From: an uncultured Gammaproteobacteria bacterium
GTDB lineage: Bacteria; Cyanobacteriota; Vampirovibrionia; 2-02-FULL-35-15
Length of the DNA: 64,000 nucleotides
Direction: 5' to 3'
Assembly (NCBI GenBank): GCA_964602915.1
Contig: CAZRTB010000001.1
Location: 598,417 to 662,416, forward strand
The notes under the pieces are model-generated. The model had not been told where the DNA came from and did not search any database. It saw only the letters and a list, made by a program, of their open reading frames with translations. Position 1 is the first letter of the stretch. Every line of letters begins with the position of its first letter. A program made the position numbers and the translations under genes. Shown piece by piece: positions 4,351 through 50,830 of the stretch.

Positions 4351-5739
4351 TCATTGATAAACATTTTCATGAAGAGTTTCAATATTTGTTATTTGGTCAT
4401 AAACCTTTAGATAATATTTCGCAATAAGAGCTGAGTTAGATTCGAAACTCATCGTTTCTTTTACAAGTTTTGTCCATTTGTCCTTGTTTTTATAGTATTT
4501 AATAGCTTTTAGAATTGCTTCTAGTAAGCTATTTTTTTTGTATTCATGATAAAGAATACTATTGGAGCTTTCCCCAAGATCTATATCTATAAGTATTTCT
4601 TTTAGTGTTCCACTAAAGTAAGAAACCGGAATGCATCCATATTTCATGGCTGTTAATACTGAAGAAACGCTTGAATTACTTTGAGAAGTATTTAAAAAGA
4701 AGTCAGAACCAGCATAAATTTTTCTTGAAAGATCTTCATTAAAATCGACAATAGCTTTTACATTACTAAATTTATTTGAGACTTTAACAAGTTCTTGTTC
4801 GTAACTTTGATTTCCTTTTGTAAGGATTATTAATTGAAGATTTTGATTTGCTATATGAGGAATTGAATCTATTAAAAGTTCAGCGCCTTTTTCATTATTA
4901 AGTCTCCCAACAAAACTAAAAACAGGTGTAGTAATAGATGCAGACATAGAAAAAATATTTAAGAGGTCTTCTTTGCATCTTTTTTTTCCTGCAGAGAAAT
5001 AGCTTTTTGAATAGTTCAGTGAAATTAATTTGTCTGTCTCTGGATCGTATCTAGACTCATCAATCCCGGGTAATATTCCATGTACAAAATCTTTTTTTTC
5101 TGAGATTATTTGACTAATGTCTAGATGATTTTTATCATTTGCAAAATCAGCTAAAAAAGACCTGGAGGAAGCCGTAATAACCTGAGAATATTTTATAGCT
5201 TCCTTTAAAGATCTATATTTATTTCCTTTGCTTTCGGAATCAGGAATGTTATATAGAGTAAAAACAGAATTTCCTTCTTTTCTTTCATTTAAAGTTCTAG
5301 CATTTAGCGAAGAGCATGAATTAAAAAGATGATATATTTGAGGTTTAAATTTTAATTTTGAAATAACCTCTAAACAAGCCATTGAAAAAAATTTGTTTCT
5401 CTCATTCTCGATATCAAGATCAGCAGTGTCTAAATATATTTCTTTCGAGTTACTGAAATGGTTTTGGCTTTCTATAAAAAAGATACTTACGAGAGAATCA
5501 GGAATAATACCTTTAAAAACCATTGTTTTAAGCGGTTCTCCATTAAAATTAAAAACAGGTTCTAGTGGTAATTTTTCAATATGAAAAACAGAGGGATCAA
5601 TAGACCCGTATCTAGGAATAAATACTTTTAAGTTATGACCTTCTTTTTCAATATTTTTTGCAAGACAGGATACAAAATCGCCAAGCCCACTTGCTTTAGC
5701 AAAAGGAAAGCATTCTGGTGATAAAAAAACAATGTCCAT
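4351..5739 (-). CDS. glgA: glycogen synthase (GT5)
   Basis: N-terminus MDIVFLSPECFPFAKASGLGDFV matches the GlgA KxGGL-type start (MKILFVASEVAPFAKTGGLADVV). The approximately 460 aa length and GT-B C-terminal half also fit. Confidence 0.8.
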   Translation of the reverse strand: MDIVFLSPECFPFAKASGLGDFVSCLAKNIEKEGHNLKVFIPRYGSIDPSVFHIEKLPLEPVFNFNGEPLKTMVFKGIIPDSLVSIFFIESQNHFSNSKEIYLDTADLDIENERNKFFSMACLEVISKLKFKPQIYHLFNSCSSLNARTLNERKEGNSVFTLYNIPDSESKGNKYRSLKEAIKYSQVITASSRSFLADFANDKNHLDISQIISEKKDFVHGILPGIDESRYDPETDKLISLNYSKSYFSAGKKRCKEDLLNIFSMSASITTPVFSFVGRLNNEKGAELLIDSIPHIANQNLQLIILTKGNQSYEQELVKVSNKFSNVKAIVDFNEDLSRKIYAGSDFFLNTSQSNSSVSSVLTAMKYGCIPVSYFSGTLKEILIDIDLGESSNSILYHEYKKNSLLEAILKAIKYYKNKDKWTKLVKETMSFESNSALIAKYYLKVYDQITNIETLHENVYQ

Positions 5740-5805
5740 ACTAAAAAGTCTATATGTGAAATGTTCTAGCGGTCAATGAGAATAAAGATTTAGTCCTAAA
5801 AAAGA

Positions 5806-5834
5806 AAGAGGGAGAGCTTTAACTCCCCCTCTTT
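5806..5834 (-). terminator. intrinsic terminator (stem AGAGGGAGAG/CTCCCCCTCT followed by UUCUUUUUU on the minus strand)
   Basis: 10-bp GC-rich imperfect inverted repeat with a 6-nt loop. The T-run is on the minus-strand side (rc of aaaaaagaa at 5797-5805). Confidence 0.5.
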
Positions 5835-5854: not shown

Positions 5855-5950
5855 CTTATTTACTTTGAGTCTTAGCAGGAATTTGTATAGGTTTTCTATA
5901 TCCTCCCTGATAAGCTCTCGTAATAAGACTTGGTCCGAAAACAGGACTCA
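5855..5950 (-). CDS. candidate 31-codon micro-ORF (MSPVFGPSLITRAYQGGYRKPIQIPAKTQSK)
   Basis: AGGAGGA immediately upstream of the ATG (rc of 5948-5960). The ORF ends about 20 nt before the terminator above, so it forms a compact RBS-ORF-terminator unit. It is below the size cutoff of the ORF track. Confidence 0.25.
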
Positions 5951-5997
5951 TGCGTCCTCCTAACGAAAGACACCATCGTCTTCAAACGACACCATTG

Positions 5998-7358: not shown

Positions 7359-9827
7359 GTGTTGGTAGTTATAACTGGGCCTGCAAGAGTTCGTACTTTA
7401 CTAGCACAAGAAAACCTAGCAAGTATTTTGTTGCCCCAGTTCAGACGTGATAGATATAACATCGAATTAAAACAAAGAACAAATATTCAAATAGTATTAG
7501 AACCAACTTCAAATGAACTTGAACTTGAAATAACTGATGCTGAAGGAGTAGGTTTAGGAATTGATAATACTACTCTTCTAACAATGGGATTAAAAATCTT
7601 TAAACCAAAAGCACTAAGAGCGGTACAAAACAACCCTGCTTTTGAACAAAGAAATTTAACAGCTACTAATAAACCAGTAAGAATTAATCTGCAAAGCAAG
7701 AAAAATCAATTTTTAATTATTGAAGGCGATGATTTTAAAGTAGCAAACATTGGTGTAACAGGACTTTTACCAGGATCATATACTTTAAAAGCAACAATTG
7801 ATGGAAATGAAACCTCTACAACTAAAATAGTTACTAAACCCGACTTTAGAATTGATGCAGTAAATCCTCAAGTAGTAGCAGTAGGAGTTGAGACAATTAT
7901 TTCAGTTCTAGGAAAAGGATTTGATTCATTTACTAGTGTAGTTTTTGATACACCAGATGTAGAAGTTAAAGATGTTGAAAATATTGATGATGATACTCTC
8001 CTTAAAGTAAAAATCTTTCCAAAGGCAACAATCCCTCTTGGTTTAAAAGATGTAACCGCTACTGATCCATTTACAGAGAGATCTTCTACTTTAGTCCGTG
8101 GATTGTTAGTTTCAGACGGTACTTTAGGAACAGACTCTATTCCAGGAACAGATGGAATGGATGGAGCAAATGGTTTAAATGGTCTTGATGGTATGGGTGT
8201 TTGTGATAATTTAACAGATACTTTAATGCTTTTCTCGAATAGCCTTCCAGCTGGAAGCCAACCAACAATTTTCTTAGATCCAGTCCAATGTAATTTAACT
8301 TTTGGAATCCCAACAGGATTTAATGGTGTAAATGCAACAGGTGCAGATGGTATGGGACTTTGTAATAATCCTTCACTAACACCAACTACTGTAGTCAACA
8401 GCGTTGCTTATGGAACATCAGCAATGGTAACTCTCGATTCAATGGCATGTACTTTAACTTATGATATTCCTGAAGGAGCGCCTGGACATAATGCTTTAGT
8501 AGAAGATGTTAATGCTACTGTTGGACAATGTCCTTTTGGTGGAAAAGTAGTTTCATATGGAATAGATTTAAATGACAACAGCAGTTTATCTGCTATGGAA
8601 ACAACAGGAATGTTCACCATATGTAATGGAGAAAACAGCTTAGCGCTTTCAATATCAGAACCAGCAGGAGCAAATTGTGCTAATGCAGGTCAAAAAGTAG
8701 AAGTAGGTTTGGATACGAGCATGGATAATATGTTAGATGCTGGTGAAATTTTACAAACTTACTATGTATGTAATGGTACAAATGGAACTAATGGTACAAA
8801 TGGAACCAACGGTACAAACGGAGCCAATGGTACAAACGGAACCAATGGTACAAATGGTACGAACGGAACCAATGGACAAGCATGTTGGGATTTAGATAAC
8901 AATGGTATGACAGATGTAGCTTCAGAAGATATAAATGGAGATGGTTCTGTAAATGTTTCAGACTGTTTAGGAACTCTTCCAACAATTTCTTACGTAATTC
9001 AAAACTGGAATACCCTTGCAGATGAGCAGGACTACACAACAGTAGGTGGAGCAATGGCTAGAATGGTCAAGATTCCTTACTTTGTTCATGATGGAGTAGT
9101 TTATGGTGGATTCTGGGTTGATAAATATGAGGCTTCTAAATCAGATGCTACAGCATCAAGTGCTGGTGTGTCTGCAGATGTAGGAAGTAAGAGAAATGTT
9201 GTTCCGACAGCTTCTGTAACACTTGCACAAGCACAAGTAGCAGGAAGTGCAACAAATAGAAGGGTTTCTACATTAGGCCCTTGTCATTTAACAGGCATGA
9301 AAGAGTGGTATACCCTTTATCTTCTTGGAAGATATTCTAAAGTAAGTGGTACTTTCGGTGCTACTGCTACAAACGGATGGAATGAAAGAGGAAATACAAG
9401 AGCAAGTAAAGATGGAAGAAATAACGTATCATTTGCTTGTTCTGACGATCCTACAGAAAGTGGTGGCACATTAGGCAGATGCTTAACTGGTACAGGATTT
9501 AAGAGCTGGGGACATTTATTAGATGGAACAGCTACAACAAACCCTACTGGTTCAGCCATAGGTGCGGCCGCAGATTCAGCGACAAATACAACAAGTGCAT
9601 TTGATGGTGATAAGCAAGTGTATGATCTTGTTGGAAATCTTACAGATACAAATGGTGGAGCTAATGGTGGGAAACTCTTTACTGCTACAAACAGTACATT
9701 TGGAGCAATTAGAGGTGGATCATGGCTAACAACCTCAGATTCAGCATCTCCGCTTTATTTGGATCTTACTCAAACTGCTGGAAGTACAAACATTGGATTT
9801 AGAGTAACGTGTGATCAAACACCGTAA
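7359..9827 (+). CDS. large mosaic protein with a collagen-like (G-T-N)n tract and a C-terminal FGE-sulfatase (SUMF1/GldJ-like) domain
   Basis: The C-terminus has FWVDKYEAS ... YDLVGN ... IRGGSW ... IGFRVTCD, matching the FGE-domain landmarks (F.MD.YEVS / GNVWEW / GGS[WY] / GFRC). The central segment is NGTNGTNGTNGTNGTNGANGTNGTNGTNGTNGTNG plus a DGMDGANGLNGLDGMG Gly-X-Y stretch. The gene has a GTG start and no signal peptide is evident. Confidence 0.6.
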   Translation: MLVVITGPARVRTLLAQENLASILLPQFRRDRYNIELKQRTNIQIVLEPTSNELELEITDAEGVGLGIDNTTLLTMGLKIFKPKALRAVQNNPAFEQRNLTATNKPVRINLQSKKNQFLIIEGDDFKVANIGVTGLLPGSYTLKATIDGNETSTTKIVTKPDFRIDAVNPQVVAVGVETIISVLGKGFDSFTSVVFDTPDVEVKDVENIDDDTLLKVKIFPKATIPLGLKDVTATDPFTERSSTLVRGLLVSDGTLGTDSIPGTDGMDGANGLNGLDGMGVCDNLTDTLMLFSNSLPAGSQPTIFLDPVQCNLTFGIPTGFNGVNATGADGMGLCNNPSLTPTTVVNSVAYGTSAMVTLDSMACTLTYDIPEGAPGHNALVEDVNATVGQCPFGGKVVSYGIDLNDNSSLSAMETTGMFTICNGENSLALSISEPAGANCANAGQKVEVGLDTSMDNMLDAGEILQTYYVCNGTNGTNGTNGTNGTNGANGTNGTNGTNGTNGTNGQACWDLDNNGMTDVASEDINGDGSVNVSDCLGTLPTISYVIQNWNTLADEQDYTTVGGAMARMVKIPYFVHDGVVYGGFWVDKYEASKSDATASSAGVSADVGSKRNVVPTASVTLAQAQVAGSATNRRVSTLGPCHLTGMKEWYTLYLLGRYSKVSGTFGATATNGWNERGNTRASKDGRNNVSFACSDDPTESGGTLGRCLTGTGFKSWGHLLDGTATTNPTGSAIGAAADSATNTTSAFDGDKQVYDLVGNLTDTNGGANGGKLFTATNSTFGAIRGGSWLTTSDSASPLYLDLTQTAGSTNIGFRVTCDQTP
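8772..8882 (+). repeat. imperfect 9-bp coding tandem repeat (AAT GGn ACn) x12 encoding (Asn-Gly-Thr)n
   Basis: Read directly: aatggtacaaatggaactaatggtacaaatggaaccaacggtacaaacggagccaatggtacaaacggaacc... Confidence 0.8.
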
Positions 9828-9852: not shown

Positions 9853-9882
9853 AGAGAAGGTGTAAAAGCCTTCTCTTTTTTT
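9853..9882. terminator. bidirectional intrinsic terminator between convergent genes
   Basis: AGAGAAGG-tgtaaaag-CCTTCTCT followed by TTTTTT. The left flank is A/T-rich enough to serve the minus strand as well. Confidence 0.6.
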
Positions 9883-9898
9883 GTAGCTAACTTATTTA

Positions 9899-11872
9899 TT
9901 AATCTCTAAAAGCAGGAGATCTACAAAAAGCAGTTCCATGATCAAAATAACCCATGGCTTGGTTTGTACAACCAGGACCAGCAAACTGCCCAACAAAACC
10001 AAAGCTGGTTCCACATGCAGGAATCTGATCAGCTAATGGACAAGTAGGAGTACCTATTTTACATTTAACAACATTACTTTCACAAAAAGGAACAAGCTCA
10101 CTATTGTTATCACTGGAGCTGGACGTAGAAGAAGAACCACTAGAACTGGTAGTTGATGTAGCAGAAGATCCACCACCACAGTATCCTGCTGATGGATCGA
10201 TACTAAATGAACCTACACAAATAGCCTGACATTTCCCTAAGTAAGGTCTGCAAAAAATACTACCTTTTCCTTCTGGACAAAAAGCAGTTCCTTCTGAACA
10301 AGTAGGAACAGATGTCGTTGTACAAGTGGTAGGACAAGCAGGTTTAGTTCCATTTGGAGGGAGGATAATAGTAATGCCACTGCTTGATGAAGAAGATGTA
10401 GAGCTTGTACTAGTTGTAGAAACTCCACCGCCACAAAATGGAGCAGAAGGATCTAATGAAAATTTCGCAGAGCAAATAGCCTGACATTTACCTAAATAAA
10501 CACTGCATTTAAGAGTTCCTTTTCCAGAAGGGCAGAATGCTGTTCCATTTGTACAAGAAGGAACTTCTATACCATCACAGCTTGAACAAATAGGCTTTGA
10601 ACCATTTGAAGGAAGAATCACTGTACTTCCACTGCTTGATGAAGAGCTGGATGAGGATGAAGAAGATGGTGATGAAATTGAACCGGAAGAAGAACTGCTT
10701 GAGGAAGACATTGAAGTAGAAGTAGTTAAGGAACCAATGATATTAACATTTGAAATTGTTTTTCCTGCCTCCACTTTTAAAATAAGTGCTTTTGATTTTC
10801 CCTGAGCCAGCGGTAAATTTGGACCACGATAATAGCCTTTAGGCACAGGATTTTGAAAAGAAAGATCACTGCTATTTTCTGCATAGTGACCAACTGAAGA
10901 TCCTTTTGTAAAGTTTGAATTGATTGGCTCAATCTCTACAGTATAATCACCAGGAATAAGTCCAGCAAGTTTAAAGTTACTATTTTGAGGTCCAAGATAT
11001 CCAGAGATACATGAAATAGCTTCTAGTAGAGGATTGTTAACATTTCGTGCAATTACATTTGCACCTAAAATTTTTCCTTTTCCATTTTTTTTAAATACAG
11101 CACCTTCTATCGTTCCAAAGCCTGATAATTCAGAAGGATTTGGATAAAGCAAAGAAATACTAGACTTGTCATCTCTTTGAAGACTAAAAAGATCATTAAC
11201 AGCAATAGGAAACATTAAAGGAACAGAATCTTTAGTATTCTGAGAAGCTGATTTATCAAGAGCCTGAACATTAATTTGTGAATGATCTAACCCCAGAGCA
11301 TGACCTAGCTCATGGATTATAGTACTTTTCATTACGTTTAAACTTACTTCTTTATTTCCTGAATTTTGAATGCCATCTACAAACTTTCCGTTAAAAACAG
11401 CGCTTGATTCCTGGATAGAATAAAAATTAGAACTGCTTTCAGTAAGAAATGAAGGACCTGCAAAGCCAAGAACAAAATTGCTTGAATTAGAACCAAGAAG
11501 ATTATCGATTACTGAGCCATCACTATCAAAAACAATAGGAGTGTATCCAAGAGGATTGTCATCAGATAAATAAGGTTTAAAATTTGAACTGCTTACATCT
11601 TCAGGTAAAAATGGATCTGAATCCTGCTGAAATCTGAAAACAGTAGTGCTTACTGATTCCCAGTCATCAAATAAATCTTTAATAATAGAAATAACTGAAT
11701 CATTTGAAAGATAACCAAAAGACCCCTTGTCAAATCTATAAATAAGAGGTCTGCTTTCATAAGAAATAATAGTCCCTTTGTCTGAAACTAAAAGAGGACC
11801 ACTAGCAGTACAGGGGTAAAAACAAGAGAGGAACAATGATAAAACTAAAATTGCAGAAAGGCTAAATCTCAT
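9899..11872 (-). CDS. secreted zinc metalloprotease, matrixin-like (M10 metzincin) with poly-Ser linkers and tandem 8-Cys C-terminal modules
   Basis: Signal peptide MRFSLSAILVLSLFLSCF. HELGHALGLDHS (HExxHxxGxxH) is followed by an SVPLMFP Met-turn. There are two approximately 70-aa repeats with eight conserved Cys (..KP.C...C.....P.C..GTAFCP.GKG...C..YLGKCQAIC...FS.DPSA..CGGG) separated by Ser runs of 20-30 residues. Confidence 0.7.
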   Translation of the reverse strand: MRFSLSAILVLSLFLSCFYPCTASGPLLVSDKGTIISYESRPLIYRFDKGSFGYLSNDSVISIIKDLFDDWESVSTTVFRFQQDSDPFLPEDVSSSNFKPYLSDDNPLGYTPIVFDSDGSVIDNLLGSNSSNFVLGFAGPSFLTESSSNFYSIQESSAVFNGKFVDGIQNSGNKEVSLNVMKSTIIHELGHALGLDHSQINVQALDKSASQNTKDSVPLMFPIAVNDLFSLQRDDKSSISLLYPNPSELSGFGTIEGAVFKKNGKGKILGANVIARNVNNPLLEAISCISGYLGPQNSNFKLAGLIPGDYTVEIEPINSNFTKGSSVGHYAENSSDLSFQNPVPKGYYRGPNLPLAQGKSKALILKVEAGKTISNVNIIGSLTTSTSMSSSSSSSSGSISSPSSSSSSSSSSSSGSTVILPSNGSKPICSSCDGIEVPSCTNGTAFCPSGKGTLKCSVYLGKCQAICSAKFSLDPSAPFCGGGVSTTSTSSTSSSSSSGITIILPPNGTKPACPTTCTTTSVPTCSEGTAFCPEGKGSIFCRPYLGKCQAICVGSFSIDPSAGYCGGGSSATSTTSSSGSSSTSSSSDNNSELVPFCESNVVKCKIGTPTCPLADQIPACGTSFGFVGQFAGPGCTNQAMGYFDHGTAFCRSPAFRD

Positions 11873-12622: not shown

Positions 12623-13501
12623 TTAAGGACTTATATCTAAAGACTTAGAAACAATTCCTCGAGGAGTTGTTATTACCAAAACTATATTTGTTTCTTGGTT
12701 AGGATTAGAAATATTTAATAAAGCATTTATTAAACTAAAACCTTTTTGAATCTCTATCTCAGAATTTGAAAAAGAAATAGATGATGGAAATAATGTTATT
12801 TTGGTGTTTTCAGCATTAAAAGATTTTTTATTATTGTTACTGAAACCATCATTAGAATAAAAAATATTTTTAGGTGCAAAATTTCTTCCATGAATCATTA
12901 GTGATAGATTCGACTCAGATGATTCAATCCCGACCATTGAGATTATGGGTTCACCTATATCCTGGGAATTATTTCTAGAGCGCACGCTTAAAAAATCTAT
13001 AATTTCAAATTCACCTCTAAGAATACTCCCTTCTACAGTTCTGATAGACAGCTTAGATGTTCCTATAGAGATTTCATCTGGAATAGTAAGAGTTAAAAGG
13101 ATAGAATCCTGACTATTTTTTACTGTTTGCATTTTAAATGGGATAGTAGTATGGTTTGTACTGTTACTATCTTCAATATCAATTCTTTTTATTTCAATAT
13201 TATTTGGTTGTGTTTTTAGAAGAATTTCAAAGGTAGGATTTGATGCAGGGAATGCATAACCAGTTTTTTTAATAGATAAATCTGCCATTGTCGGAAGCTT
13301 TACGATATCAGGAAATATAGGGCTTCCGATAATTTCTAAGTCAAGATTACTCTCAGAGCCGACAGAAATTGAGCCGGAAGAAGAGGATACAGTACTAATA
13401 ATATCAAAGCGAGTATTTTTAAGATTTTCACTTGCAAGTGAAAAAACCTTAAAATTAAATATAATTATTAATAATATTATTAAATAAAATGCTTTTTTCA
13501 T
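12623..13501 (-). CDS. secreted hypothetical protein
   Basis: Signal peptide MKKAFYLIILLIIIFNFKVFSLASE. It is Ser/Ile/Asn-rich and has no recognisable catalytic motif. Confidence 0.45.
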   Translation of the reverse strand: MKKAFYLIILLIIIFNFKVFSLASENLKNTRFDIISTVSSSSGSISVGSESNLDLEIIGSPIFPDIVKLPTMADLSIKKTGYAFPASNPTFEILLKTQPNNIEIKRIDIEDSNSTNHTTIPFKMQTVKNSQDSILLTLTIPDEISIGTSKLSIRTVEGSILRGEFEIIDFLSVRSRNNSQDIGEPIISMVGIESSESNLSLMIHGRNFAPKNIFYSNDGFSNNNKKSFNAENTKITLFPSSISFSNSEIEIQKGFSLINALLNISNPNQETNIVLVITTPRGIVSKSLDISP

Positions 13502-32996: not shown

Positions 32997-34061
32997 GTGT
33001 CAGTTTTTGATAAAATTAAAGTAAAAAAAATAATAAGTTTTGCTAGTGATAATTACTCAGGAGTTCACCCTGACATTATGAATGCTATTGTTGAGGCTAA
33101 TGCTGGGCAGGCAAGAGCATACGGAGAAGATGATTATACTCTGATATCAGATGAGATCTTTAAAAAACATTTTGGAAAAAATATAGAAGTTTATTATGTT
33201 TTCAATGGTACTGCAGCAAATGTTTTAGGCTTGAAAGCTATTACGGAATCCTTCCATTCTATTATATGTGCGGAAACAGCACATATAAATGGAGATGAGT
33301 GTGGTGCTCCTGAAAGATTTACTGGTTGTAAGCTTTTAACAATTCCATCGCAAGATGGAAAAATTACTGTTGAGCAGATAAAAAAGTATCTCTATCATCT
33401 GGGAAATCATCATAGAAATCAGCCAAAAGTAATTTCAATTACTCAGCCCACAGAATATGGAACATTATATTCTCCTAGTGAAATAAGAAAAATAGCAGAT
33501 TATGCACATGAAAATAATTTATTTCTTCATATGGATGGAGCGAGGTTATCTAATGCTTCATCTGCACTGAATTTATCCCTGAAAGAAATTACTAAAGATG
33601 TAGGTGTAGATGTTTTATCTTTTGGTGGAACTAAAAATGGCATTATGAGTGGTGAGACTGTGATATTTTTTGATATGCCAGATATAGGATACAACTTTAA
33701 ATTTATTAGAAAGCAGGGAATGCAGTTAGTCTCAAAAATGAGATATATTTCTGCTCAGTTTATAGCATTCTTGTCTAATGATTTATGGTTAAAAAATGCA
33801 ACTCATGCAAATCAGATGGCAAGGCTGTTAGAAGAAAAACTTAAAACTATTCCAGCCATTAAAATTACTCAAAAAGTAGAAACAAATTCAGTCTTTGCAA
33901 TAATGCCAGAGAAAGTTATCCCAATAGCACAAGAAAAATACCCATTCTATATGTGGAATCCTGAGATTTCTGAGGTTAGATTTATGACTTCTTTTGATAC
34001 AGAAAAGCAGGATATAGAAAATTTTGTGAATGATTTAAAAGGTTTTTTAGCCGGCTTTTGA
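32997..34061 (+). CDS. ltaE: PLP-dependent low-specificity threonine aldolase family (beta-eliminating lyase fold)
   Basis: SFASDNYSGVHPDIMNAIVEANAG N-terminus, the ...HMDGARL.NA region, and the Schiff-base Lys in FGGTKNG. Confidence 0.7.
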   Translation: MSVFDKIKVKKIISFASDNYSGVHPDIMNAIVEANAGQARAYGEDDYTLISDEIFKKHFGKNIEVYYVFNGTAANVLGLKAITESFHSIICAETAHINGDECGAPERFTGCKLLTIPSQDGKITVEQIKKYLYHLGNHHRNQPKVISITQPTEYGTLYSPSEIRKIADYAHENNLFLHMDGARLSNASSALNLSLKEITKDVGVDVLSFGGTKNGIMSGETVIFFDMPDIGYNFKFIRKQGMQLVSKMRYISAQFIAFLSNDLWLKNATHANQMARLLEEKLKTIPAIKITQKVETNSVFAIMPEKVIPIAQEKYPFYMWNPEISEVRFMTSFDTEKQDIENFVNDLKGFLAGF

Positions 34062-35679: not shown

Positions 35680-38600
35680 ATGGAAATTGAATCAATCTTA
35701 AAAGATATAAAAAACGAATTAAGTGAAATAAAACAACTTGATAAAAAATCCAATGCTGTAATTGAGAATAAATTAAAAAGATGGTGTGACACACTTTTAG
35801 ACCTAACAAAGAGAAATCCGTCACTTCATTTCCTTACTCATGTAAAAGCAGGAAAAAATAAAGGAAAAAGAAAACATAATATTTTTAAAATAAAACTTAC
35901 TTCAGAAGAAGTTTTTGAGAAGCTAGTAAATAAAACAGAAGTTTTAAATCTGTCTGATGCAGGATTGGTTGATTTAAGCAGAGGGTTTTCTAGATTTGGT
36001 TTTAGTAAAAAAAGAAGTTATTATATTTCTGTTTCAGAGGATATTCCAGAAGAAGGTGAAGAGGTCGAAGAATCTGAAGAATTAGAAGAAAATTTAGATG
36101 AAACACAAGATCTTGAAAATGAAACATTTCAGACTGAGCAAGAAGAAGAACTAATTGATAATAATTTAGTTATTTCCCAGTTTATAAGAATTAAAAGAGA
36201 TACAGAAAGTATTTTAGAAGAAAGAGGAACACACGTTCTTTATCTTATATGCGGGTTATTTGAGTGGAGAGATCCTCTGATATCTGATGAAATCTTAAAT
36301 ACCCCTATACTTTTTATTCCAGTTACAATTCAAAAAACCAGAACAAAAGATAGATTTAGTATTCATCTTGCAGAAAGTTCTGAAGTAGAATTTAATCCAA
36401 CATTTTCTTATTTATTAAAGAAAAACTATCAGCTGGATCTAGATAAAGAAATAAATGAAATATTAAATAATCAGGAAAATAAAGAAGATCTTTCACCAAT
36501 AAAACAAATCTTTGAATTAATAGAAACCAGATTAACAAAACTTCTTCAAGGGAAAATTAAAGATGAAACGTGGCTAGGTAAATTTTGGTTTGAAAAATTA
36601 GTTCTTTTGACTGATATTCAGAAGAATATAGGTGCTTTTGTAAATGATCCAATTATTCAAAATATTTGTGGTGAAAAACCTCAAGAAGAAATAGAACATA
36701 AAACAAATCTTGAAGAGTTATCTAGACAAGCGGAAAATAAAAAGCCTCTTGAGATATTTGAAGTACTTGATGCTGACTCTAGCCAAAGAAGGGCAATAGA
36801 ATCAGCAATTAGTAAAAAGAATTTTGTTTTAATAGGGCCACCGGGTACTGGAAAATCTCAAACAATTGCAAATATTATTTCAGAATGTCTGGTTAGAGGG
36901 AGAAAAGTTTTATTTGTTAGTGAAAAACTAGCCGCTTTGAAAGTGGTGAAAAAGAAATTAGAACAATGTAATTTAGGAAAACTATGTATATCTATTCATG
37001 GAAAAGAAACAAAGAAAAAAGATTTTTATTCGAACTTATATGACTGGTATGAAGAAGTCTTATCTTATAATCCAAAGCCAAATCAAGATGAAATAATTTA
37101 TGAAGAATTGGCAAACATAAAGAAAAGACTTAATGATTATGCTACTGCTCTTGGTAAAAATGATAGTTCGCTTAGCCATGTAGTGGAGAAGATTGGGAAA
37201 GAAGTAAAAACCTTAGAACTAACAAACCAATATATTCAAGGGAAATTATTAGGACTAGATAAAATCCCAGAAGTAAAAACAAGAATAAATATTGATGATT
37301 TAGATGTAAGAAAATACAAATCACAAAAAGAAGTTTTAGAAAAAACAATCCCCTATAAAGATATTGTCTTAAAAAAGACTTATAGCGACTGGTTCACTAC
37401 TGAACTAATGGGTCCATATACCATTGAAATGGAAGAGGATATTTTAAAAGCACTAAAAAGAATTAGTATTCAAGAATTAATAGGAATTATAGATGAAATA
37501 AACAATCTTTTAGAACTAAAAGCTTCCATGCCTTTATATAAAACCATTGATTTAATTGCATTTGTAAAAGAGATAGTTAATGCTCCTGAACTCGAATCAA
37601 ACCTTTTAAATCCAGAGGCAGTTTCAGATAGTGTAACAAAGTTAAGTTCAGACATTGCTCTTCATAAGAAATATATAGAAGAAAGAAAAAATCTTACAAA
37701 TTATTTTAATTCAAGCTTATTAGAAAAAGATCTAGATGATCTAAAAGAGAATTTCTCGGAAAAATATAAAGAAGATAAACTTAGATGGTTTAAACCAACA
37801 TATTGGAAAATAAGAAAAGAAGTTTCAAAGGATAAAGTCAAAACCCCTGATGGAAAAGAAAATATTTTTGATGACAATTTATATTTTAGTGAGATTGAAA
37901 GAGCAAGTACAATTAAAAAATTAGCTTTTGATATAGAAGCTCATACGAAAGAATTTTCACAAAGATATGGAAATACTTATGTAGGAGAAAATACAGACTG
38001 GGAAAAAGTTTCATATCTTTTAAATTATGCTGATTCGTTGTTTAAGCATCTGAATGAAAAGCTAAGCATCCCACATCTAGAAAGTATCGTCAGTTCTGCA
38101 CTGTCAGAGTGTCTCCAGTCAAAATACAGTCCTATAAAAGACAAGCTTAAACAATTACTTTTAAAACTAGAAAGCAAATTAAATGAATTTGATATTGCAT
38201 TTATAGCTCTCGGTCAATTTCTCCCATTATCATATGAAAAAGAAAAGTATGATGAGAAAAATAAATTAACTTCATATCCAAAATATATTTTTAATAAATC
38301 AGATTTTGGAATTAAAAATCTAGAAGAAGTTAAATTCTGGATTCAAAAATTAGAGAGGGATCTTAAAGAAGAGCCTTCACTTTTAGAGATATGGCTAGAG
38401 TTTAAAGAAATAAAAGAAGAAGCAAAAGAGCTAAGCCTGGAAGAATTTTTAGAAGATTTTAGTAAATTAGATCTTGATTATAATAATATTGTTCAAATCT
38501 TTGAAAAAAGAACATTAGAACTTTTACTTATAAATGCAGAAAAAGAAAGTCCTGCTCTTGCAAAATTTAGCGCAAATCGCTATCAAAAACTTCAGGAAGA

Positions 38601-40179
38601 CTTTAAAACTTTTGATAAGCAGTCGCTTAAATTAAATCAAAACAGAATATTTGAAATTGTTTCTAAGCAAATAAAAGAAAAACTAATGTTTCATCAGGAA
38701 CCAAGATTGCTTAAAAAACTTGGTCAACAAAAAAGACCTAAAAAGCCAATCAGGCAAGCTATTATAGATACAGAAGATTTATTCTTTTCATTAAAGCCGT
38801 GCTGGATGATGAGTCCACTTACGGTTAGTCAGTATTTACCGCCAAATGCATCTTTATTTGATGTAGTTATATTTGATGAGGCTTCTCAGGTAAGACCAGC
38901 AGATTCAATAGGAGCAATTTTCAGAGGAGATCAAATAATCGTAGTTGGCGATCCACGTCAGCTCCCCCCTACAAACTTTTTCCAAACAATGGCACAAGAT
39001 GACAAAAACATTTTAGATGATGAGGAAGATGAAGGATCAGAAGAAAGTATTATTGATGAGGTTTTAAGTAAAGCCTATGACATTGATGAAATCCCTTTGA
39101 AGTGGCACTATAGAAGTAAGAGCGAAGATCTTTTTTCTTTTGCTAGCCACAATATTTATTCCGACTTAGAGCTTATAACTTTCCCAAATCCAAAACCATA
39201 TTTAGAAGATGGAAGACCGCTTGGTGTAAAACATGTTTTAGTGAAAGACGGAGTTTATGACAGAGGTAAAACCAGAACAAATCTAAAAGAAGCTGAGCAG
39301 GTAGCTGATCTTGTAATAGAGCACTATACCCGTTATGGGACAGATAAATGTGATCCCAGGTATTTAAGCCTTGGAGTTATTGCCTTTAGTTCAGCACAGG
39401 AAGATGCTATTTTAAATGCTATTCAGAAAAGAAAAAAAGAATTTCCAGATATTGAGACTATTTTAGAAGATAAAGATGGAGAAGGTTTCTTTGTTAAGAA
39501 CCTCGAAACTGTACAAGGAGATGAGAGAGATCATATTATTATTTCAGTAGGATATGGCCCAGATTCTACAGGGAAAATGGTAAGCAATTTTGGACCATTA
39601 AACTCAGAGGGTGGATATAGAAGGCTAAATGTAGCTATAACAAGAGCTAGGTATCATTTGATGATAGTAAGCTCATTTAATCCACGAAGTTTTAATTTAA
39701 ACAGTAATCAGCAAGGAGCAAAACTCTTATTAAAATATTTACGATTTGCAGAACAAGGTAAAGCAGTATTGTTTGAAGATAAGCCAGAGCAAGCAAGTGC
39801 AGATACTTTTAATTCTCCATTTGAAGAAGAGGTTTTTAAGAGACTTTCAGAAAAAGGACTTGAAATCCACACTCAGGTAGGATGTAGTGGTTATAGAGTT
39901 GACATGGCAGTAATAAATCCTAAAAAACCAAATGAGTATTTATTTGCTATTGAATGTGACGGAAAAACATATCATGGGACTTTTTCGGCAAAAGACAGAG
40001 ATAGATTACGTCAGGAAATCCTAGAAGATAGAGGCTGGAAGGTCTACAGAATATGGTCTCGTGACTGGATGAAAAATCCAAAAAAAGAAATTTTAAGACT
40101 AATGGATTTTTATAATAGCCTTGTTCAAAAAGAAGAAGCAAAAGAGTTAATAGAAGATCTTGAAATGAATTTTGAGTAA
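35680..40179 (+). CDS. DUF4011-like N-region + SF1B (Upf1/DNA2-like) helicase + C-terminal DUF559/Vsr-like endonuclease fusion protein
   Basis: Helicase motifs are I LIGPPGTGKSQT, II VVIFDEASQV, III VVGDPRQLPPT, V ISVGYGPDSTG and VI RRLNVAITRARYHLMIV. The C-terminus has YRVDMAVINPKKPNEYLFAIECDGKTYHGTFSAKDRDRLRQEILEDRGWKVYRIW, the DUF559 pattern. There is an acidic low-complexity insert at residues about 125-160. Confidence 0.8.
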   Translation: MEIESILKDIKNELSEIKQLDKKSNAVIENKLKRWCDTLLDLTKRNPSLHFLTHVKAGKNKGKRKHNIFKIKLTSEEVFEKLVNKTEVLNLSDAGLVDLSRGFSRFGFSKKRSYYISVSEDIPEEGEEVEESEELEENLDETQDLENETFQTEQEEELIDNNLVISQFIRIKRDTESILEERGTHVLYLICGLFEWRDPLISDEILNTPILFIPVTIQKTRTKDRFSIHLAESSEVEFNPTFSYLLKKNYQLDLDKEINEILNNQENKEDLSPIKQIFELIETRLTKLLQGKIKDETWLGKFWFEKLVLLTDIQKNIGAFVNDPIIQNICGEKPQEEIEHKTNLEELSRQAENKKPLEIFEVLDADSSQRRAIESAISKKNFVLIGPPGTGKSQTIANIISECLVRGRKVLFVSEKLAALKVVKKKLEQCNLGKLCISIHGKETKKKDFYSNLYDWYEEVLSYNPKPNQDEIIYEELANIKKRLNDYATALGKNDSSLSHVVEKIGKEVKTLELTNQYIQGKLLGLDKIPEVKTRINIDDLDVRKYKSQKEVLEKTIPYKDIVLKKTYSDWFTTELMGPYTIEMEEDILKALKRISIQELIGIIDEINNLLELKASMPLYKTIDLIAFVKEIVNAPELESNLLNPEAVSDSVTKLSSDIALHKKYIEERKNLTNYFNSSLLEKDLDDLKENFSEKYKEDKLRWFKPTYWKIRKEVSKDKVKTPDGKENIFDDNLYFSEIERASTIKKLAFDIEAHTKEFSQRYGNTYVGENTDWEKVSYLLNYADSLFKHLNEKLSIPHLESIVSSALSECLQSKYSPIKDKLKQLLLKLESKLNEFDIAFIALGQFLPLSYEKEKYDEKNKLTSYPKYIFNKSDFGIKNLEEVKFWIQKLERDLKEEPSLLEIWLEFKEIKEEAKELSLEEFLEDFSKLDLDYNNIVQIFEKRTLELLLINAEKESPALAKFSANRYQKLQEDFKTFDKQSLKLNQNRIFEIVSKQIKEKLMFHQEPRLLKKLGQQKRPKKPIRQAIIDTEDLFFSLKPCWMMSPLTVSQYLPPNASLFDVVIFDEASQVRPADSIGAIFRGDQIIVVGDPRQLPPTNFFQTMAQDDKNILDDEEDEGSEESIIDEVLSKAYDIDEIPLKWHYRSKSEDLFSFASHNIYSDLELITFPNPKPYLEDGRPLGVKHVLVKDGVYDRGKTRTNLKEAEQVADLVIEHYTRYGTDKCDPRYLSLGVIAFSSAQEDAILNAIQKRKKEFPDIETILEDKDGEGFFVKNLETVQGDERDHIIISVGYGPDSTGKMVSNFGPLNSEGGYRRLNVAITRARYHLMIVSSFNPRSFNLNSNQQGAKLLLKYLRFAEQGKAVLFEDKPEQASADTFNSPFEEEVFKRLSEKGLEIHTQVGCSGYRVDMAVINPKKPNEYLFAIECDGKTYHGTFSAKDRDRLRQEILEDRGWKVYRIWSRDWMKNPKKEILRLMDFYNSLVQKEEAKELIEDLEMNFE

Positions 40180-42593: not shown

Positions 42594-43484
42594 ATGACTC
42601 AAAACAAAAAAGATTTGTTTAAACTACACTTTGCAGTGTTTTTATTTGGCTTTGCGGCATTGTTTGGAAAGCTTTTAAAAGTAAGCCCATTTGTCATTGT
42701 TTGTGGAAGAACTTTTTTTGCAGTAATAGCAATGACATTATTTATGTTATTTACTAAAAAGAAATTTAAATTAAAAGATTTTAAAGATTATTTTAATCTT
42801 GCATTCGTTGGTGTAATGTTTGCGCTTCATTGGTATACGTTTTTCAAATCAATTCAGGTTTCTACAGTAGCAATTGCTGTTTTAACATTTTCTACATTTC
42901 CTATTTTTGTAACTTTTATGGAGCCATATTTTTCAAAGGAGAAATTAAAAACTTTTGATGTTGTAATTGCTTTTATTACACTTCTAGGAGTTGGTTTGGT
43001 TATTCCTAGATTTGAGCTCTCAGATAGTTTTATGCAAGGAGCACTATGGGGTATAGCATCAGGATTTACCTGTGCAATTCTTGCAATTTCAAACAGGCAA
43101 AATGTAGCTAAGTATTCCAGTGAACAAATCTCACTTTATCAAAACATTACAGCTACTGTAATTTTATTTCCAGTAGTTTTAAAAATAAATCCAGTATTAA
43201 ATTCGGGTGATATTTGGCTTTTATCTTTGCTTGGTGTGGTTTTTACTGCAGGAACCAATATTTTATTTATCTCCAGTTTAAAAACTATAACTGCGCAACT
43301 TGCTAGTGTTATAACCTGTCTGGAGCCTGTTTATGCCATTATTATTGCTTATTATGTATTAGGAGAAGAGCCTACTATCAGAACTCTCTTTGGTGGATTA
43401 ATAATTTTAGGAGCAGTTTTAATGGCTAGTAAAGCCCACAATAATCAGATAAAAGCTGAGATTGTTTTACAGGAAAGTCTTTAA
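42594..43484 (+). CDS. EamA/DMT-superfamily 10-TM transporter
   Basis: Two roughly 140-aa halves, each with 5 hydrophobic helices. The length is 296 aa. Confidence 0.65.
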   Translation: MTQNKKDLFKLHFAVFLFGFAALFGKLLKVSPFVIVCGRTFFAVIAMTLFMLFTKKKFKLKDFKDYFNLAFVGVMFALHWYTFFKSIQVSTVAIAVLTFSTFPIFVTFMEPYFSKEKLKTFDVVIAFITLLGVGLVIPRFELSDSFMQGALWGIASGFTCAILAISNRQNVAKYSSEQISLYQNITATVILFPVVLKINPVLNSGDIWLLSLLGVVFTAGTNILFISSLKTITAQLASVITCLEPVYAIIIAYYVLGEEPTIRTLFGGLIILGAVLMASKAHNNQIKAEIVLQESL

Positions 43485-47883: not shown

Positions 47884-49464
47884 TTAAACACCCTTTTTAG
47901 CTCTAAAATCGTCTTGTTGAGCTAGGATTTTTGCGCCAGCATTTTCAGCACTTAAAAACTTATTTAATGCATTTAAATAAGCCTTTGCTGAAGCCAGCAT
48001 GATGTCAGTGTTTGCTGCATGTCCGCTATAAACTGCTCCACCTTCACTTCTGATTCTAATGGTTACCTCGCCTAAAGCATCAATCCCTTCAGTAACTGAC
48101 TGAACAGAGAACTCTATAAGTTCATTTGGTACTTGAACAATTTTATTTATAGCTTTATAAATGGCATCAACAGGACCAGTACCTAGTGCAGAATCTTTTA
48201 AAAACATGTTGTCATTTGTTCTTCTAAGGCAAGCTGAAGCTGTAGGGAGTCCAGTCCCACAGGCTATCTGTAGATTTTCAAGCTCATAAAAAGAAGTGGT
48301 TTCACTGGATCTTTGTTCGTCACGAACTATCGATTCTAAATCTCTATCTTCAACACGCTTTTTCTTATCAGCAATCTCTTTAAATCTTTCAAAAGCTTTC
48401 TCTAAATCTTCCTCTGATAAATGATAACCAAGCTCAACCAGTCTGTCTTTTAAAGCATGCCTTCCTGAACGTGGTCCCAAAGGCAGTTTAGATGTAAGTA
48501 ATCCTACATCTTCAGGATTCATAATTTCATAAGTCTTTTTATATTTTAAAAAACCATCCTGATGAATGCCAGATTCATGTGCAAAAGCATTTGCTCCAAC
48601 AATAGCTTTGTTTGGCTGAACGAGCATATTTGTAAGAGTACTTACCAAACGACTTGTTCTATAAATTTGAGTAGAATCTATACTTGTAAAAAGATTTAAA
48701 TGTGGTCTTGTTTTTAAGATCATTACGATCTCTTCAAGTGAACAATTTCCTGCTCTTTCCCCAATCCCATTAATGGTGCATTCTATTTGACGAGCACCGT
48801 TAACTACAGCGCTAAGTGAGTTTGCTACTGCAAGCCCAAGATCATTGTGACAATGTACAGAAATAATAGCTTTGTCAATGCTTTTAACATTTTCTTTAAT
48901 TCCTTTTATTAATGCTCCAAACTCTGTAGGAACTGTGTATCCCACAGTATCAGGAATATTTAAAGTAGTGGCTCCAGCCTGAATAACAGCTTCTAAAATC
49001 TCATACAGAAAGTTTGGGTCTGATCTTCCTGCATCTTCAGGAGAAAATTCTACATCATTTGTAAATGTTTTAGCAAAACTTACCATCTCAACAGCAGTTT
49101 TAACTACTTTATCTCTGGACATTTTTAATTTATGTTCCATGTGAATATCACTGGTAGCTATAAACGTATGAATTCTCTTTTTCTTTGCACCTTCAAGTGC
49201 CTGTGCAGATTTTTCAATATCTTCTTTTCTTGCTCTGGCAAGTCCGCAGATAGTAGGTCCTTGAACTTCTTTTGCTATAAGTCTTACTGCTTCAAAGTCC
49301 CCAGGACTTGAAAATGGAAATCCAGCTTCTATAATATCTACACCTAGTTTAGCTAGCTGATGAGCAATTTCTAGCTTTTCAGAGATGTTTAGTGTTGCTC
49401 CAGGAGATTGTTCTCCATCTCTTAAGGTGGTGTCAAATATATATACTCTGTCTTTGTTTTCCAT
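47884..49464 (-). CDS. leuA: 2-isopropylmalate synthase (LeuA/CimA family, with C-terminal regulatory domain)
   Basis: [18 protein letters not shown] and the HCHNDLG metal site. The approximately 525 aa length includes the LeuA-dimer regulatory domain. The Met at 49464 is preceded by AGAGGA-6 nt; the track start at 49500 lies inside the leader structure. Confidence 0.85.
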
Positions 49465-49587
49465 TGTTTTTCCTCTAAATAAAAAACTCCTTAAAACCAT
49501 TAAGCTTTAACCATGCAAGATAAATTCTTACATGATTTTAGCGAAGGTTAAGGAGTAATAGTTTTTTCATAAACGTATACTCATTAT
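49465..49587 (-). promoter_or_regulatory. putative leuA leader: TATAAT, 10-codon Leu-rich leader peptide, RNA hairpins
   Basis: Leader peptide ORF 49538..49570 encodes MKKLLLLNLR. TATAAT lies 12 nt upstream. A 9-bp hairpin is at 49512-49534. The leader Leu codons (ACUCCUUAA) are complementary to UUAAGGAGU, which sits immediately 5' of a UUUUUUAUUU run. Confidence 0.45.
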
Positions 49588-49672
49588 ACTATGTTCTTCT
49601 TGTAAAGATCAAGAAATGAGGGTACAATATAAATGGTATATTTACTGCAAAAGTGTACGGTAATCTTGCAAG

Positions 49673-50830
49673 ATGTTAAATAGATATATAAACTTACCAA
49701 AGAAAGAAAGTTTTTTCCTCTTTGGCCCAAGACAAGTAGGAAAAAGCACTTTAGTAAAAGAACGATATAAGCAAAATGTATGGGAAGTAAATTTGCTTAT
49801 AAATGAAATATTTTTGTCATATTCAAAAAATCCCTCGTTATTTAGAGAAGAAGCTGTATATAAAATAAAAAATGAAAAAATAAAAACAATATTTATAGAT
49901 GAAGTACAAAGATTGCCTGAATTGTTAAATGAAATTCAATATTTAATTCAAGGATATAAAGTTCAAATTATTCTTACAGGATCAAGTGCAAGAAAATTGA
50001 AAAGGGGAGGCGTTAATCTTCTTGGGGGTAGAGCAGTAGAAAGATATCTTTTTCCGTTCACATTTAATGAATTAGGAGACAACTTTTTATTAGATGAAGT
50101 TCTTTTATATGGGTCATTGCCTCCAACTTTAATAAAATCAAAAAAAGACAAAATAGATTTATTAAGTACATATGTGAACGTTTATTTAAAGGAAGAAATC
50201 CAAAATGAAGGAATAGTAAGAAACATAGGGGGATTCTCTAGGTTTCTAGATGTGGCTACTAGCCAATTTGGGGAATTAACCAGCTTCTCTGAAATTAGTA
50301 GAGAATGTCAAGTACCAGTAAGAACAGTTCAATCATACTATGAAATTTTAGAAGATACATTGATAGGTTTTAGATTATATCCCTGGAGAAAAAGTCTGAG
50401 AAAGAGGCTAAGTGCACACCCTAAGTTTTACTTCTTTGATAATGGAGTTGTTAATGCTGTTTGTAAAAGACTAACGGCAGTTCCGGATCAAAGCCTTAAG
50501 GGAAAATTGTTTGAGCATTGGGTAATTCAAGAAACATATAGAAACATAAAATATAAACAAAGTGAAGCTTCTATGTTTTATTGGAGAACAAATCATGGTG
50601 CTGAAGTGGACTTACTAATAGAAAAACATGGGAAACTAAAAGCGGTTTTTGAGATAAAATATAGTTCAAATATTTCTGGATCCCATCTGTCAGGGATTAG
50701 ATCTTTTAAAGAAGATTATCCAAATACTCCAGCTTACATAATCTCAAATGTGAGAAACCCAATAGAAATATCAGGAGTAAAAGTAATTAACTGGAAGAAC
50801 TATTTAAATATTTTAGATGAAATAATTTAG
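49673..50830 (+). CDS. AAA+ ATPase, AAA_14/DUF4143 family
   Basis: Walker A LFGPRQVGKSTL and Walker B IFIDEVQ. The C-terminal DUF4143-like half (..FSRFLDVA..., YFFDNG) is present. Confidence 0.75.
   Translation: MLNRYINLPKKESFFLFGPRQVGKSTLVKERYKQNVWEVNLLINEIFLSYSKNPSLFREEAVYKIKNEKIKTIFIDEVQRLPELLNEIQYLIQGYKVQIILTGSSARKLKRGGVNLLGGRAVERYLFPFTFNELGDNFLLDEVLLYGSLPPTLIKSKKDKIDLLSTYVNVYLKEEIQNEGIVRNIGGFSRFLDVATSQFGELTSFSEISRECQVPVRTVQSYYEILEDTLIGFRLYPWRKSLRKRLSAHPKFYFFDNGVVNAVCKRLTAVPDQSLKGKLFEHWVIQETYRNIKYKQSEASMFYWRTNHGAEVDLLIEKHGKLKAVFEIKYSSNISGSHLSGIRSFKEDYPNTPAYIISNVRNPIEISGVKVINWKNYLNILDEII

Follow-up and report, generated by a model that had tools for sequence, protein, structure and literature searches.

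How is leuA, the gene for 2-isopropylmalate synthase, controlled in the uncultured bacterium whose DNA is given above, and what is the leucine-rich micro-open reading frame (micro-ORF) that stands just in front of it? The stretch analysed is 64,000 nucleotides (nt) long (contig CAZRTB010000001.1; hereafter the window, with coordinates given as window positions), and the leader of leuA is read on the minus strand, from 49612 to 49462. The initial annotation, made from the letters alone, had proposed a candidate transcription attenuator. Considering the fold and its conservation, we think it probable that the leader is indeed a leucine-responsive, ribosome-mediated transcription attenuator of a monocistronic leuA. 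Directly established are the sequence features, the predicted fold and the conservation of the ORF, of its Leu codons, of two helices (P1 and P4, described below) and of the U-tract.

A promoter scan of the leader found a -35-like hexamer, TTGATC, at 49607..49612 (10/12 matches), followed after an 18-nt spacer by a -10 hexamer, TATAAT, at 49583..49588, with 12 nt between the latter and the ATG of the micro-ORF. The micro-ORF itself (49538..49570) consists of ten codons and a stop, ATG AAA AAA CTA TTA CTC CTT AAC CTT CGC TAA, and has no Shine-Dalgarno (SD) sequence; its 5' untranslated region (UTR) would be about 5 nt long. The encoded peptide, MKKLLLLNLR*, contains five Leu residues in ten, four of them consecutive, and one of the Leu codons is CUC, the rarest in the window (4.1% of Leu codons). 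Both the -10 hexamer and the peptide are as the initial annotation had described them.

The Leu codons also form one strand of a helix. The 5' strand of P1, ACUCCUUAA (49548..49556), lies within the micro-ORF and comprises the last base of UUA, CUC, CUU and the AA of AAC, while its 3' strand, UUAAGGAGU (49486..49494), is an exact complement, resembles an SD and lies 24 nt from the leuA AUG; this complementarity had been pointed out before and was confirmed. Inside P1, RNAfold placed a short CC:GG helix (P2) and a third helix (P3) in which GCU (49540..49542, the second and third bases of CGC, the codon before the stop, and the U of UAA) is paired in the minimum free energy (MFE) structure with AGC (49506..49504). 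The innermost hairpin, P4 (49509..49537), is AAUCAUGUAAGA-AUUUA-UCUUGCAUGGUU, with arms at 49537..49526 and 49520..49509. It had been given as a 9-bp hairpin, CAUGUAAGA/UCUUGCAUG; that pairing stands, but it extends to 12 bp. The U-tract, UUUUUAUUU (49477..49485), adjoins P1 and makes with P1-P4 a predicted intrinsic terminator, the whole element measuring ~95 nt. In this stretch GGAG is followed by T6-A-T3, and the first U closes the helix, leaving a tail, UUUUUAUUU, with five U; a U-tract had rightly been seen after the helix, but the run quoted for it, of six, was one U too long. Next comes the SD of leuA, GAGGA (49471..49475), 6 nt before the ATG and outside the hairpin, again as expected from the initial annotation. 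As a separate observation, the two Lys codons AAA AAA (49562..49567) are complementary to the terminator U-tract (49480..49486), as they are at loci L001, L082, L091 and L099 of the relatives introduced below, and the leader A-tract pairs with the U-tract in most MFE structures. Speculatively, this pairing could extend or strengthen the terminator stem, in which case a translating ribosome would mask it too.

The gene downstream is a bona fide LeuA and not a citramalate synthase, as had been argued from the leader. It scored 814.1 bits with the NCBIfam equivalog NF002086 (cutoff 532) and 760.3 with TIGR00973 (cutoff 598.7), against 226 with the citramalate synthase model TIGR00977 (cutoff 450), and it carries PF00682, PF22617 and PF08502, the LeuA_dimer regulatory domain being present. 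It is monocistronic, since the next genes are on the opposite strand. Its start is, on comparative grounds, the second Met, the ATG at 49464, giving a protein of 526 amino acids (47884..49464, minus strand) that begins with MENKD as its homologues do. Calling the longest ORF adds 12 codons (47884..49500, 538 amino acids) and places the start at an ATG (49498..49500) that falls within the 3' half of the terminator; among the relatives, L001 and L082 have a stop after this ATG and L081 lacks it, and its frame is not conserved. The upstream ATG was therefore ruled out and the 538-residue call is an over-extension. In practical terms, the gene call is corrected here: ORF callers push the leuA start into the terminator. 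AAGGAG as the SD of leuA was ruled out by its 24-nt distance and by the presence of a second SD.

The whole leader folds as one nested hairpin, P1 (9 bp)-P2-P3-P4 (12 bp), abutting the U-tract. Its MFE is -30.8 kcal/mol, compared with -18.3 +/- 3.1 in dinucleotide shuffles (z = -4.08), and 1/200 shuffles were as good. A Leu-rich micro-ORF by itself is not remarkable in window DNA of 32% G+C: there are 15 in the 64 kb (both strands, mostly intragenic), against 3.3 in Markov shuffles, and chance would place ~0.02 of them in the ~150 nt preceding leuA. We regard conservation in relatives as the decisive evidence, at the level of sequence, that chance is not the explanation.

Folding of the growing transcript in steps formed P4 first and then P3, whereas P1 and P2 closed only with the polymerase on the U-tract, so that the co-transcriptional check proposed earlier completed the terminator only there. 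When the footprint of a ribosome on CUC or CUU was masked in constrained folding, P1 was lost and no stem remained beside the U-tract; the masked fold retained P4 and a weak, non-conserved A-U hairpin. The same constrained folding, used as a search for an antiterminator, gave only weak, non-conserved A-U hairpins involving the 3' strand. Thus, the classical three-hairpin model with a 2:3 antiterminator was rejected, and the alternative pairing of the initial annotation stands in part: its idea that stalling prevents formation of the terminator agrees with the comparative evidence, but there is no conserved second RNA helix.

The leuA upstream regions compared came from three sources: GTDB genomes, contigs on which members of the closest LeuA clusters are encoded, and a single pattern match in metagenomes; the Caenarcaniphilales LeuA lineages of 70% identity (P0037-P0040), as well as P0027, stand outside the comparison. 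The closest genomes are metagenome-assembled genomes (MAGs) of Melainabacteria / 'Candidatus Caenarcanales', at 89% amino-acid identity, and the window genome is itself a Melainabacteria (Caenarcaniphilales-like) MAG; a locus identical to that of the window is present in several public assemblies. The element (micro-ORF, helix between the Leu codons and AAGGAG, and U-tract) was found in 7/7 LeuA lineages sharing 89% identity or more, and also in L090, the sole additional locus retrieved by the metagenome pattern scan for the P1 arms. Ten loci carry it: the window, L001, L090, L081, L082/83, L084, L085 and L086, which make up the close clade, and the more distant L091 and L099. The leader clade is monophyletic in a neighbour-joining tree of LeuA. 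The conserved leader ORF and pairing that the initial annotation had set as its test were thus found upstream of the orthologous leuA throughout the close clade and in L091 and L099.

The leader peptide is MKKLLLLNLG* in L001 and L090, MKQILLNLNS* in L081, MKKLLLNLLS* in L082/83, MKQLLLNLLS* in L084 and L085, and MINVLLNLS* in L086. In L091 (P0030; 83% LeuA identity) it is MLRKSLLNLLS*, read from UUG UUA AGA AAA AGU CUU CUA AAU CUG CUU AGU UAA; the upstream context is TGTAGAAT ... AGGAAAACUAUA, then the UUG start, with an SD, AGGA, 8 nt before it. P1 is here UCUUCUaAA:UUaAGAGGA followed by U7, and the fold has z = -4.4. In L099 (P0021; 84% LeuA identity) the peptide is MLKNLLSLLK*, from GUG UUA AAA AAU CUC CUU AGC CUA CUU AAG UAA, and P1 is CUCCUUAG:UUAAGGAG, followed by U5AU3. 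Judging by these sequences, the leaders of L091 and L099 are clearly homologous to the others, as diverged copies in basal lineages. Both were found by eye and by folding, as the covariance model (R1), built from the eight close sequences, is too narrow for them. With this model, neither the window nor a set of 36 loci yielded a second copy; two weak matches (L089, 2209-2305; L001, 5669-5762) were dismissed on inspection.

The structure is conserved along with the ORF. Over P1 and P4, 98.8% of cells in the eight close sequences are standard pairs, compared with 35-50% when the partner strand is slid by 1-3 columns. In P4, 97.9% of the leader-clade cells are paired, with one compensatory change (A-U to G-C) and four one-sided changes compatible with wobble, and L091 and L099 have in the same place a 13-14-bp hairpin of different sequence. 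P3 is kept in relatives as GGCU:AGCU, AGCU:AGCU or UAGUU:AGCUA. P1 is invariant in the close clade except for one U-A to U-G change, while in L091 it differs at four positions, two of them compensated (A-U to U-A, C-G to U-A), one a wobble and one an A x A mismatch. The P1-P4 architecture is the MFE structure in every relative, including the diverged L091 and L099; all loci have a nested hairpin of -29 to -36 kcal/mol, and a tract of U5-8 directly follows P1 in 10/10. All leader-clade relatives keep the -10 (TATAAT or TACAAT), with 8-12 nt between it and the start of the micro-ORF. The TTGATC -35 is not conserved, the relatives having instead an extended -10, TGnTATAAT.

From this evidence we infer a transcription start ahead of the micro-ORF, its translation, termination at the U-tract and a response to leucine, which would fit together as follows. 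Transcription would start a few bases before the micro-ORF, the translation of which would be leaderless or nearly so and without an SD. Together with its neighbours, the central pair of Leu codons, CUC CUU, would double as the 5' strand of P1, and P1-P4 with the U-tract would act as an intrinsic terminator located 22 nt ahead of the start of leuA. With charged Leu-tRNA plentiful, the ribosome would complete the peptide and leave at UAA; P4, P3 and P2 would already have formed, P1 would zip up as the polymerase reached the U-tract, and transcription would stop. An untranslated leader would terminate as well. With charged Leu-tRNA scarce, a ribosome stalled on the Leu codons would cover the 5' strand of P1, so that the terminator could not form and the polymerase would read through into leuA. 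The competition would be one of direct occlusion, ribosome against helix, making a separate antiterminator helix unnecessary. P4, being the first to form, may serve as a pause or nucleation hairpin that buys time for the ribosome.

All this supposes that the micro-ORF is translated, and the codon alignment speaks to this point. At 10/10 loci the ORF opens in frame with AUG, UUG or GUG and closes with TAA, and the differences in length are whole codons at two indel sites. Three Leu columns are invariant with synonymous codons (CTC/CTT, CTT/CTA and CTT/CTC/CTG/CTA), and the third of them, with all four CUN codons, is not explicable by pairing because it lies outside P1. Between L082 and L091 the LLNLLS block shows 4 synonymous and 0 non-synonymous changes. 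Leu makes up 5 of the 9-10 residues in 8/10 loci, the other two having 3 Leu plus Ile/Val, and CUC is present in 9/10 leaders, with CUU in its place in L091. In comparative terms this is the signature of selection acting on codon meaning and not on RNA pairing alone.

It bears directly on the alternative that survives best, in which the leader would be a structured RNA with a terminator controlled by a protein, a small ligand or a tRNA, with the CUCCUU:AAGGAG helix giving rise to the micro-ORF as a mere by-product. The nucleotide invariance of P1 in the close clade, where CUC CUU may be kept only for pairing, would agree with this, as would the lack of an SD before the micro-ORF in the window clade; moreover, the candidate leuA and ilvB leader peptides of S. 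coelicolor did not act in the manner of classical attenuators (PMC1262725). However, a by-product would hardly be expected to conserve a start codon, an in-frame TAA and whole-codon indels, nor a Leu position outside P1 and the LLNLLS block by synonymous change, and the SD in front of the UUG of L091 points in the same direction. The loops vary freely across the loci, and conserved unpaired loops or bulges of the ligand-pocket type were not seen. Rfam gave only tRNA-Arg for the whole window at gathering thresholds (cmscan), and for the 601-nt leader region at E <= 10 only spurious eukaryotic miRNA and snoRNA matches, with none to RF00512, RF01743 or RF00230, nor to any riboswitch or T-box. A T-box was rejected for this reason and because the element is too small for one. 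Considering both sides, we find control without the ribosome unlikely.

Some indication of how a micro-ORF without an SD may be initiated comes from the other genes of the window. By a simple scan, 8/48 have an SD, and in about 12 (~quarter) the start is preceded at 5-10 nt by a -10-like hexamer (TAnnnT), both being rough counts, as the start codons come from longest-ORF calls. Examples are TATAAT-6-GTG at 32997, TAAAAT-6-ATG at 42594 and TAGAAT-7-ATG at 12623..13501, and the same pattern is found at the leuA of L002, L004, L006, L009, L012, L015, L087 and L089. Leaderless mRNAs may therefore be common in these Melainabacteria, and with few SDs and -10 boxes near the starts, including that of leuA where no leader element precedes it, leaderless initiation of the micro-ORF is plausible in the lineage. 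A precedent is the ilvB attenuator of C. glutamicum, with a leaderless leader peptide according to Morbach (2000), as that work is cited in PMC4046766 and PMC11857589.

A second alternative assigns the switch to translation, or to translation and transcription together. Here ACUCCUUAA, which resembles an anti-SD, would sequester AAGGAG, and stalling would free it as a standby loading site, or a 30S subunit bound there would block the terminator. Such control would resemble the actinobacterial LEU element, where pairing between the Leu-codon run and the leuA SD is the base stem (PMC1262725), or translational attenuation of the cat/erm type. The 3' strand of P1 is a perfect AAGGAG, and few window genes have an SD as strong; in L091, however, the strand is AAGAGGA. 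The distance is also wrong, with AAGGAG 24 nt upstream of the leuA AUG (44 nt in L091) and no start codon at SD distance from it, whereas leuA has an SD of its own (GAGGA, GGGA or GGAGA), unsequestered and 6-8 nt before the AUG, at every leader locus. A purely translational switch would also leave unexplained the U-tract that abuts the helix in 10/10 loci. We consider this version very unlikely.

The upstream neighbours of leuA differ: a divergent AAA_14/DUF4143 gene in the window, a gene of 571-582 amino acids in L082/L084, another in L086, and pckA in L001 and L090. The element nevertheless always adjoins leuA, 16-44 nt before its start, and constant adjacency to leuA with varying neighbours identifies it as a leuA leader and not as the terminator of a neighbour. 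The least credible alternative, that of an independent small transcript (a small RNA or small-peptide gene) or of a pckA terminator without regulatory link to leuA, can draw on the co-directional pckA of L001 and L090, which ends roughly 60-90 nt upstream of a hairpin that could terminate it, on the -10-like TATTAT just after the U-tract of L091 and on the ability of terminated attenuator RNAs to act in trans (PMC6614838), but it meets, besides this constancy, a window clade with neither room nor a good match for a promoter between U-tract and leuA, the lack of any other R1 copy in the window or the 36 loci, and the low chance expectation for a Leu-rich peptide before leuA.

Two observations concern the same surroundings. 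What is inserted between pckA and leuA varies from locus to locus: an AAA_14/DUF4143 ATPase in the window (49673..50830, plus strand), a gene for 571-582 amino acids without Pfam match in L082/L084 (1099..2847), a Gp49/HTH toxin-antitoxin-like pair in L089 (2279..2951), and nothing in L001, L090 and L005. In L091 (1455..1500) the spacer between U-tract and leuA is 44 nt long and the TATTAT stands directly after the U-tract, so that a second, attenuator-independent leuA promoter is possible there.

Several findings weigh against attenuation by a ribosome on the Leu codons. The conservation of CUC CUU could be due to pairing alone, and the covariation in P1 comes from one locus, L091, with its A x A mismatch. 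No SD precedes the micro-ORF in the window clade, where the 8-12 nt between -10 and ATG would leave a 5' UTR of 1-5 nt, which is not strictly leaderless. A ribosome at UAA would still overlap the 3' end of the P1 5' strand; thus, termination relies on its timely release, which is a kinetic assumption. The terminator is atypical, its closing helix spanning a nested structure of ~53 nt, and a simple terminator scanner misses it because of a loop limit of 8 nt. Run genome-wide, the scanner found terminator-like sites no more often than in shuffles, and the typical terminators of this genome are therefore unusable as a yardstick.

The distribution is also patchy. The element is missing in 12 lineages of a large clade of 81-86% LeuA identity, which counts against the proposal as well, and in a group of 65% identity (the element-less loci of both being L002-L005, L015, L087-L089, L092 and L006-L014). 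As a rule, the leuA start codon in these relatives is preceded at only 6-8 nt by a TAnnnT box, a spacing suggestive of a leaderless mRNA. Depending on the true tree, either the element goes back to the ancestor of the family, with a single later loss, or it arose on more than one occasion.

Leader-peptide attenuation is textbook knowledge in Proteobacteria and has been documented in Actinobacteria and some Firmicutes. For Melainabacteria and Cyanobacteria, no description of it came to light in the literature that could be searched. That the Cyanobacteriota/Melainabacteria lineage would have here its first described case of ribosome-mediated attenuation, and a minimal one with two states (a near-leaderless ORF of ten codons, Leu codons as the terminator 5' strand, pairing of the Lys A-tract with the U-tract, no antiterminator, and a freed AAGGAG that is maybe a standby loading site), is a claim on which we are evenly divided. 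The element is compact, antiterminator-free and near-leaderless, with a patchy family-level distribution, and is neat rather than surprising. If functional, it would mean that uncultured, non-photosynthetic relatives of cyanobacteria couple transcription and translation tightly enough for attenuation. A design of ~95 nt without SD or antiterminator would also inform the minimal requirements of attenuation and provide a compact amino-acid sensor part, and the sister clades with an element-less, leaderless leuA would offer a natural series of gain or loss that helps to study how attenuators originate.

Elsewhere in the window, the regions upstream of the genes for aspartokinase (55275), a beta-eliminating lyase (32997) and glycogen synthase (5739) revealed no further attenuator. 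A 31-codon ORF, MSPVFGPSLITRAYQGGYRKPIQIPAKTQSK* (5856..5951, minus strand), with a strong AGGAGG SD lies in an otherwise empty intergenic region of 956 bp and may encode a small protein or represent a further leader. It is followed by a strong 13-bp GC-rich hairpin with a T-run (5805..5834, minus strand), with some 65 nt between this hairpin and the glycogen/starch-synthase-like gene downstream (4351..5739). Between the convergent genes 7359..9827 (plus) and 9899..11872 (minus), a perfect 9-bp palindromic hairpin, AGAGAAGG...CCTTCTCT (9853..9876), has a T-run on the plus strand and a weaker one on the minus strand; from its sequence it looks like a bidirectional intrinsic terminator, and hairpin and T-run together are evidence of terminators of the hairpin and U-tract type in this genome. 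The gene at 35680..40179 (plus strand) codes for a 1499-residue protein with DUF4011, AAA_11/AAA_12 helicase and MTES_1575 restriction-endonuclease-like domains. Large helicase-nucleases of this kind are often found in defence or mobile contexts.

Which known systems does the leuA leader resemble? The enterobacterial leu attenuator (leuL; RF00512) shares with it the short leader ORF with four consecutive Leu codons, rare ones included, the order promoter-leader-terminator before the first gene of leucine biosynthesis, and read-through upon stalling at Leu codons. However, leuL has 28 residues instead of 10, there is no similarity at the level of sequence or covariance model, and it works with alternative hairpins (1:2/2:3/3:4), whereas here the Leu codons are the 5' strand of the terminator. 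The enterobacterial leader also controls an operon and not a single gene, the micro-ORF described here lacks an SD, and the hosts are Gammaproteobacteria in one case and Melainabacteria in the other. In the pyrBI attenuator of E. coli, the leader ORF enters the terminator hairpin, and a ribosome on its 5' strand blocks termination without an antiterminator, a principle of ribosome on terminator that the window leader would share. The pyrBI leader has 44 codons and an SD, and it responds not to tRNA charging but to uridine triphosphate (UTP), which it senses by way of polymerase pausing and the coupling of transcription to translation.

Among Firmicutes, the Lactococcus leu/phe leader (RF01743) and the ilv-leu peptide of S. 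aureus (PMC5794164) are likewise Leu-rich leaders of genes for branched-chain amino acids in AT-rich genomes, and transcription attenuation has been proposed for them. They are longer and led by an SD, have terminator/antiterminator alternatives and give no covariance-model match, and the leaders of S. aureus are combined with CodY or T-box control of large operons.

The closest architectural precedents, by analogy, are those of Actinobacteria, in spite of their unrelated sequence and phylum. The base stem of the LEU element is likewise formed by a run of Leu codons and a GGAG-type box, but there the box is the real leuA SD, and a pseudoknot without obvious terminator has been proposed for the element (PMC1262725). 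The window leader falls outside this class, as its AAGGAG is 24 nt from the AUG and followed by a U-tract, with a separate, free GAGGA as SD. The C. glutamicum ilvB attenuator forms three hairpins, including an antiterminator (PMC11857589), whereas no antiterminator is conserved here. On the other hand, the leuA leader of C. glutamicum contains four consecutive Leu codons (PMC4046766; PMC11857589), and, in the work of Morbach (2000) as reported by later authors, the ilvB leader peptide of this species also has no ribosome-binding site and is read from a leaderless transcript. Finally, in actinobacterial ilvB leaders the ORFs with Leu, Ile and Val codons overlap a terminator hairpin that is followed by poly-U (PMC1262725), the same arrangement as in front of the leuA of the window.

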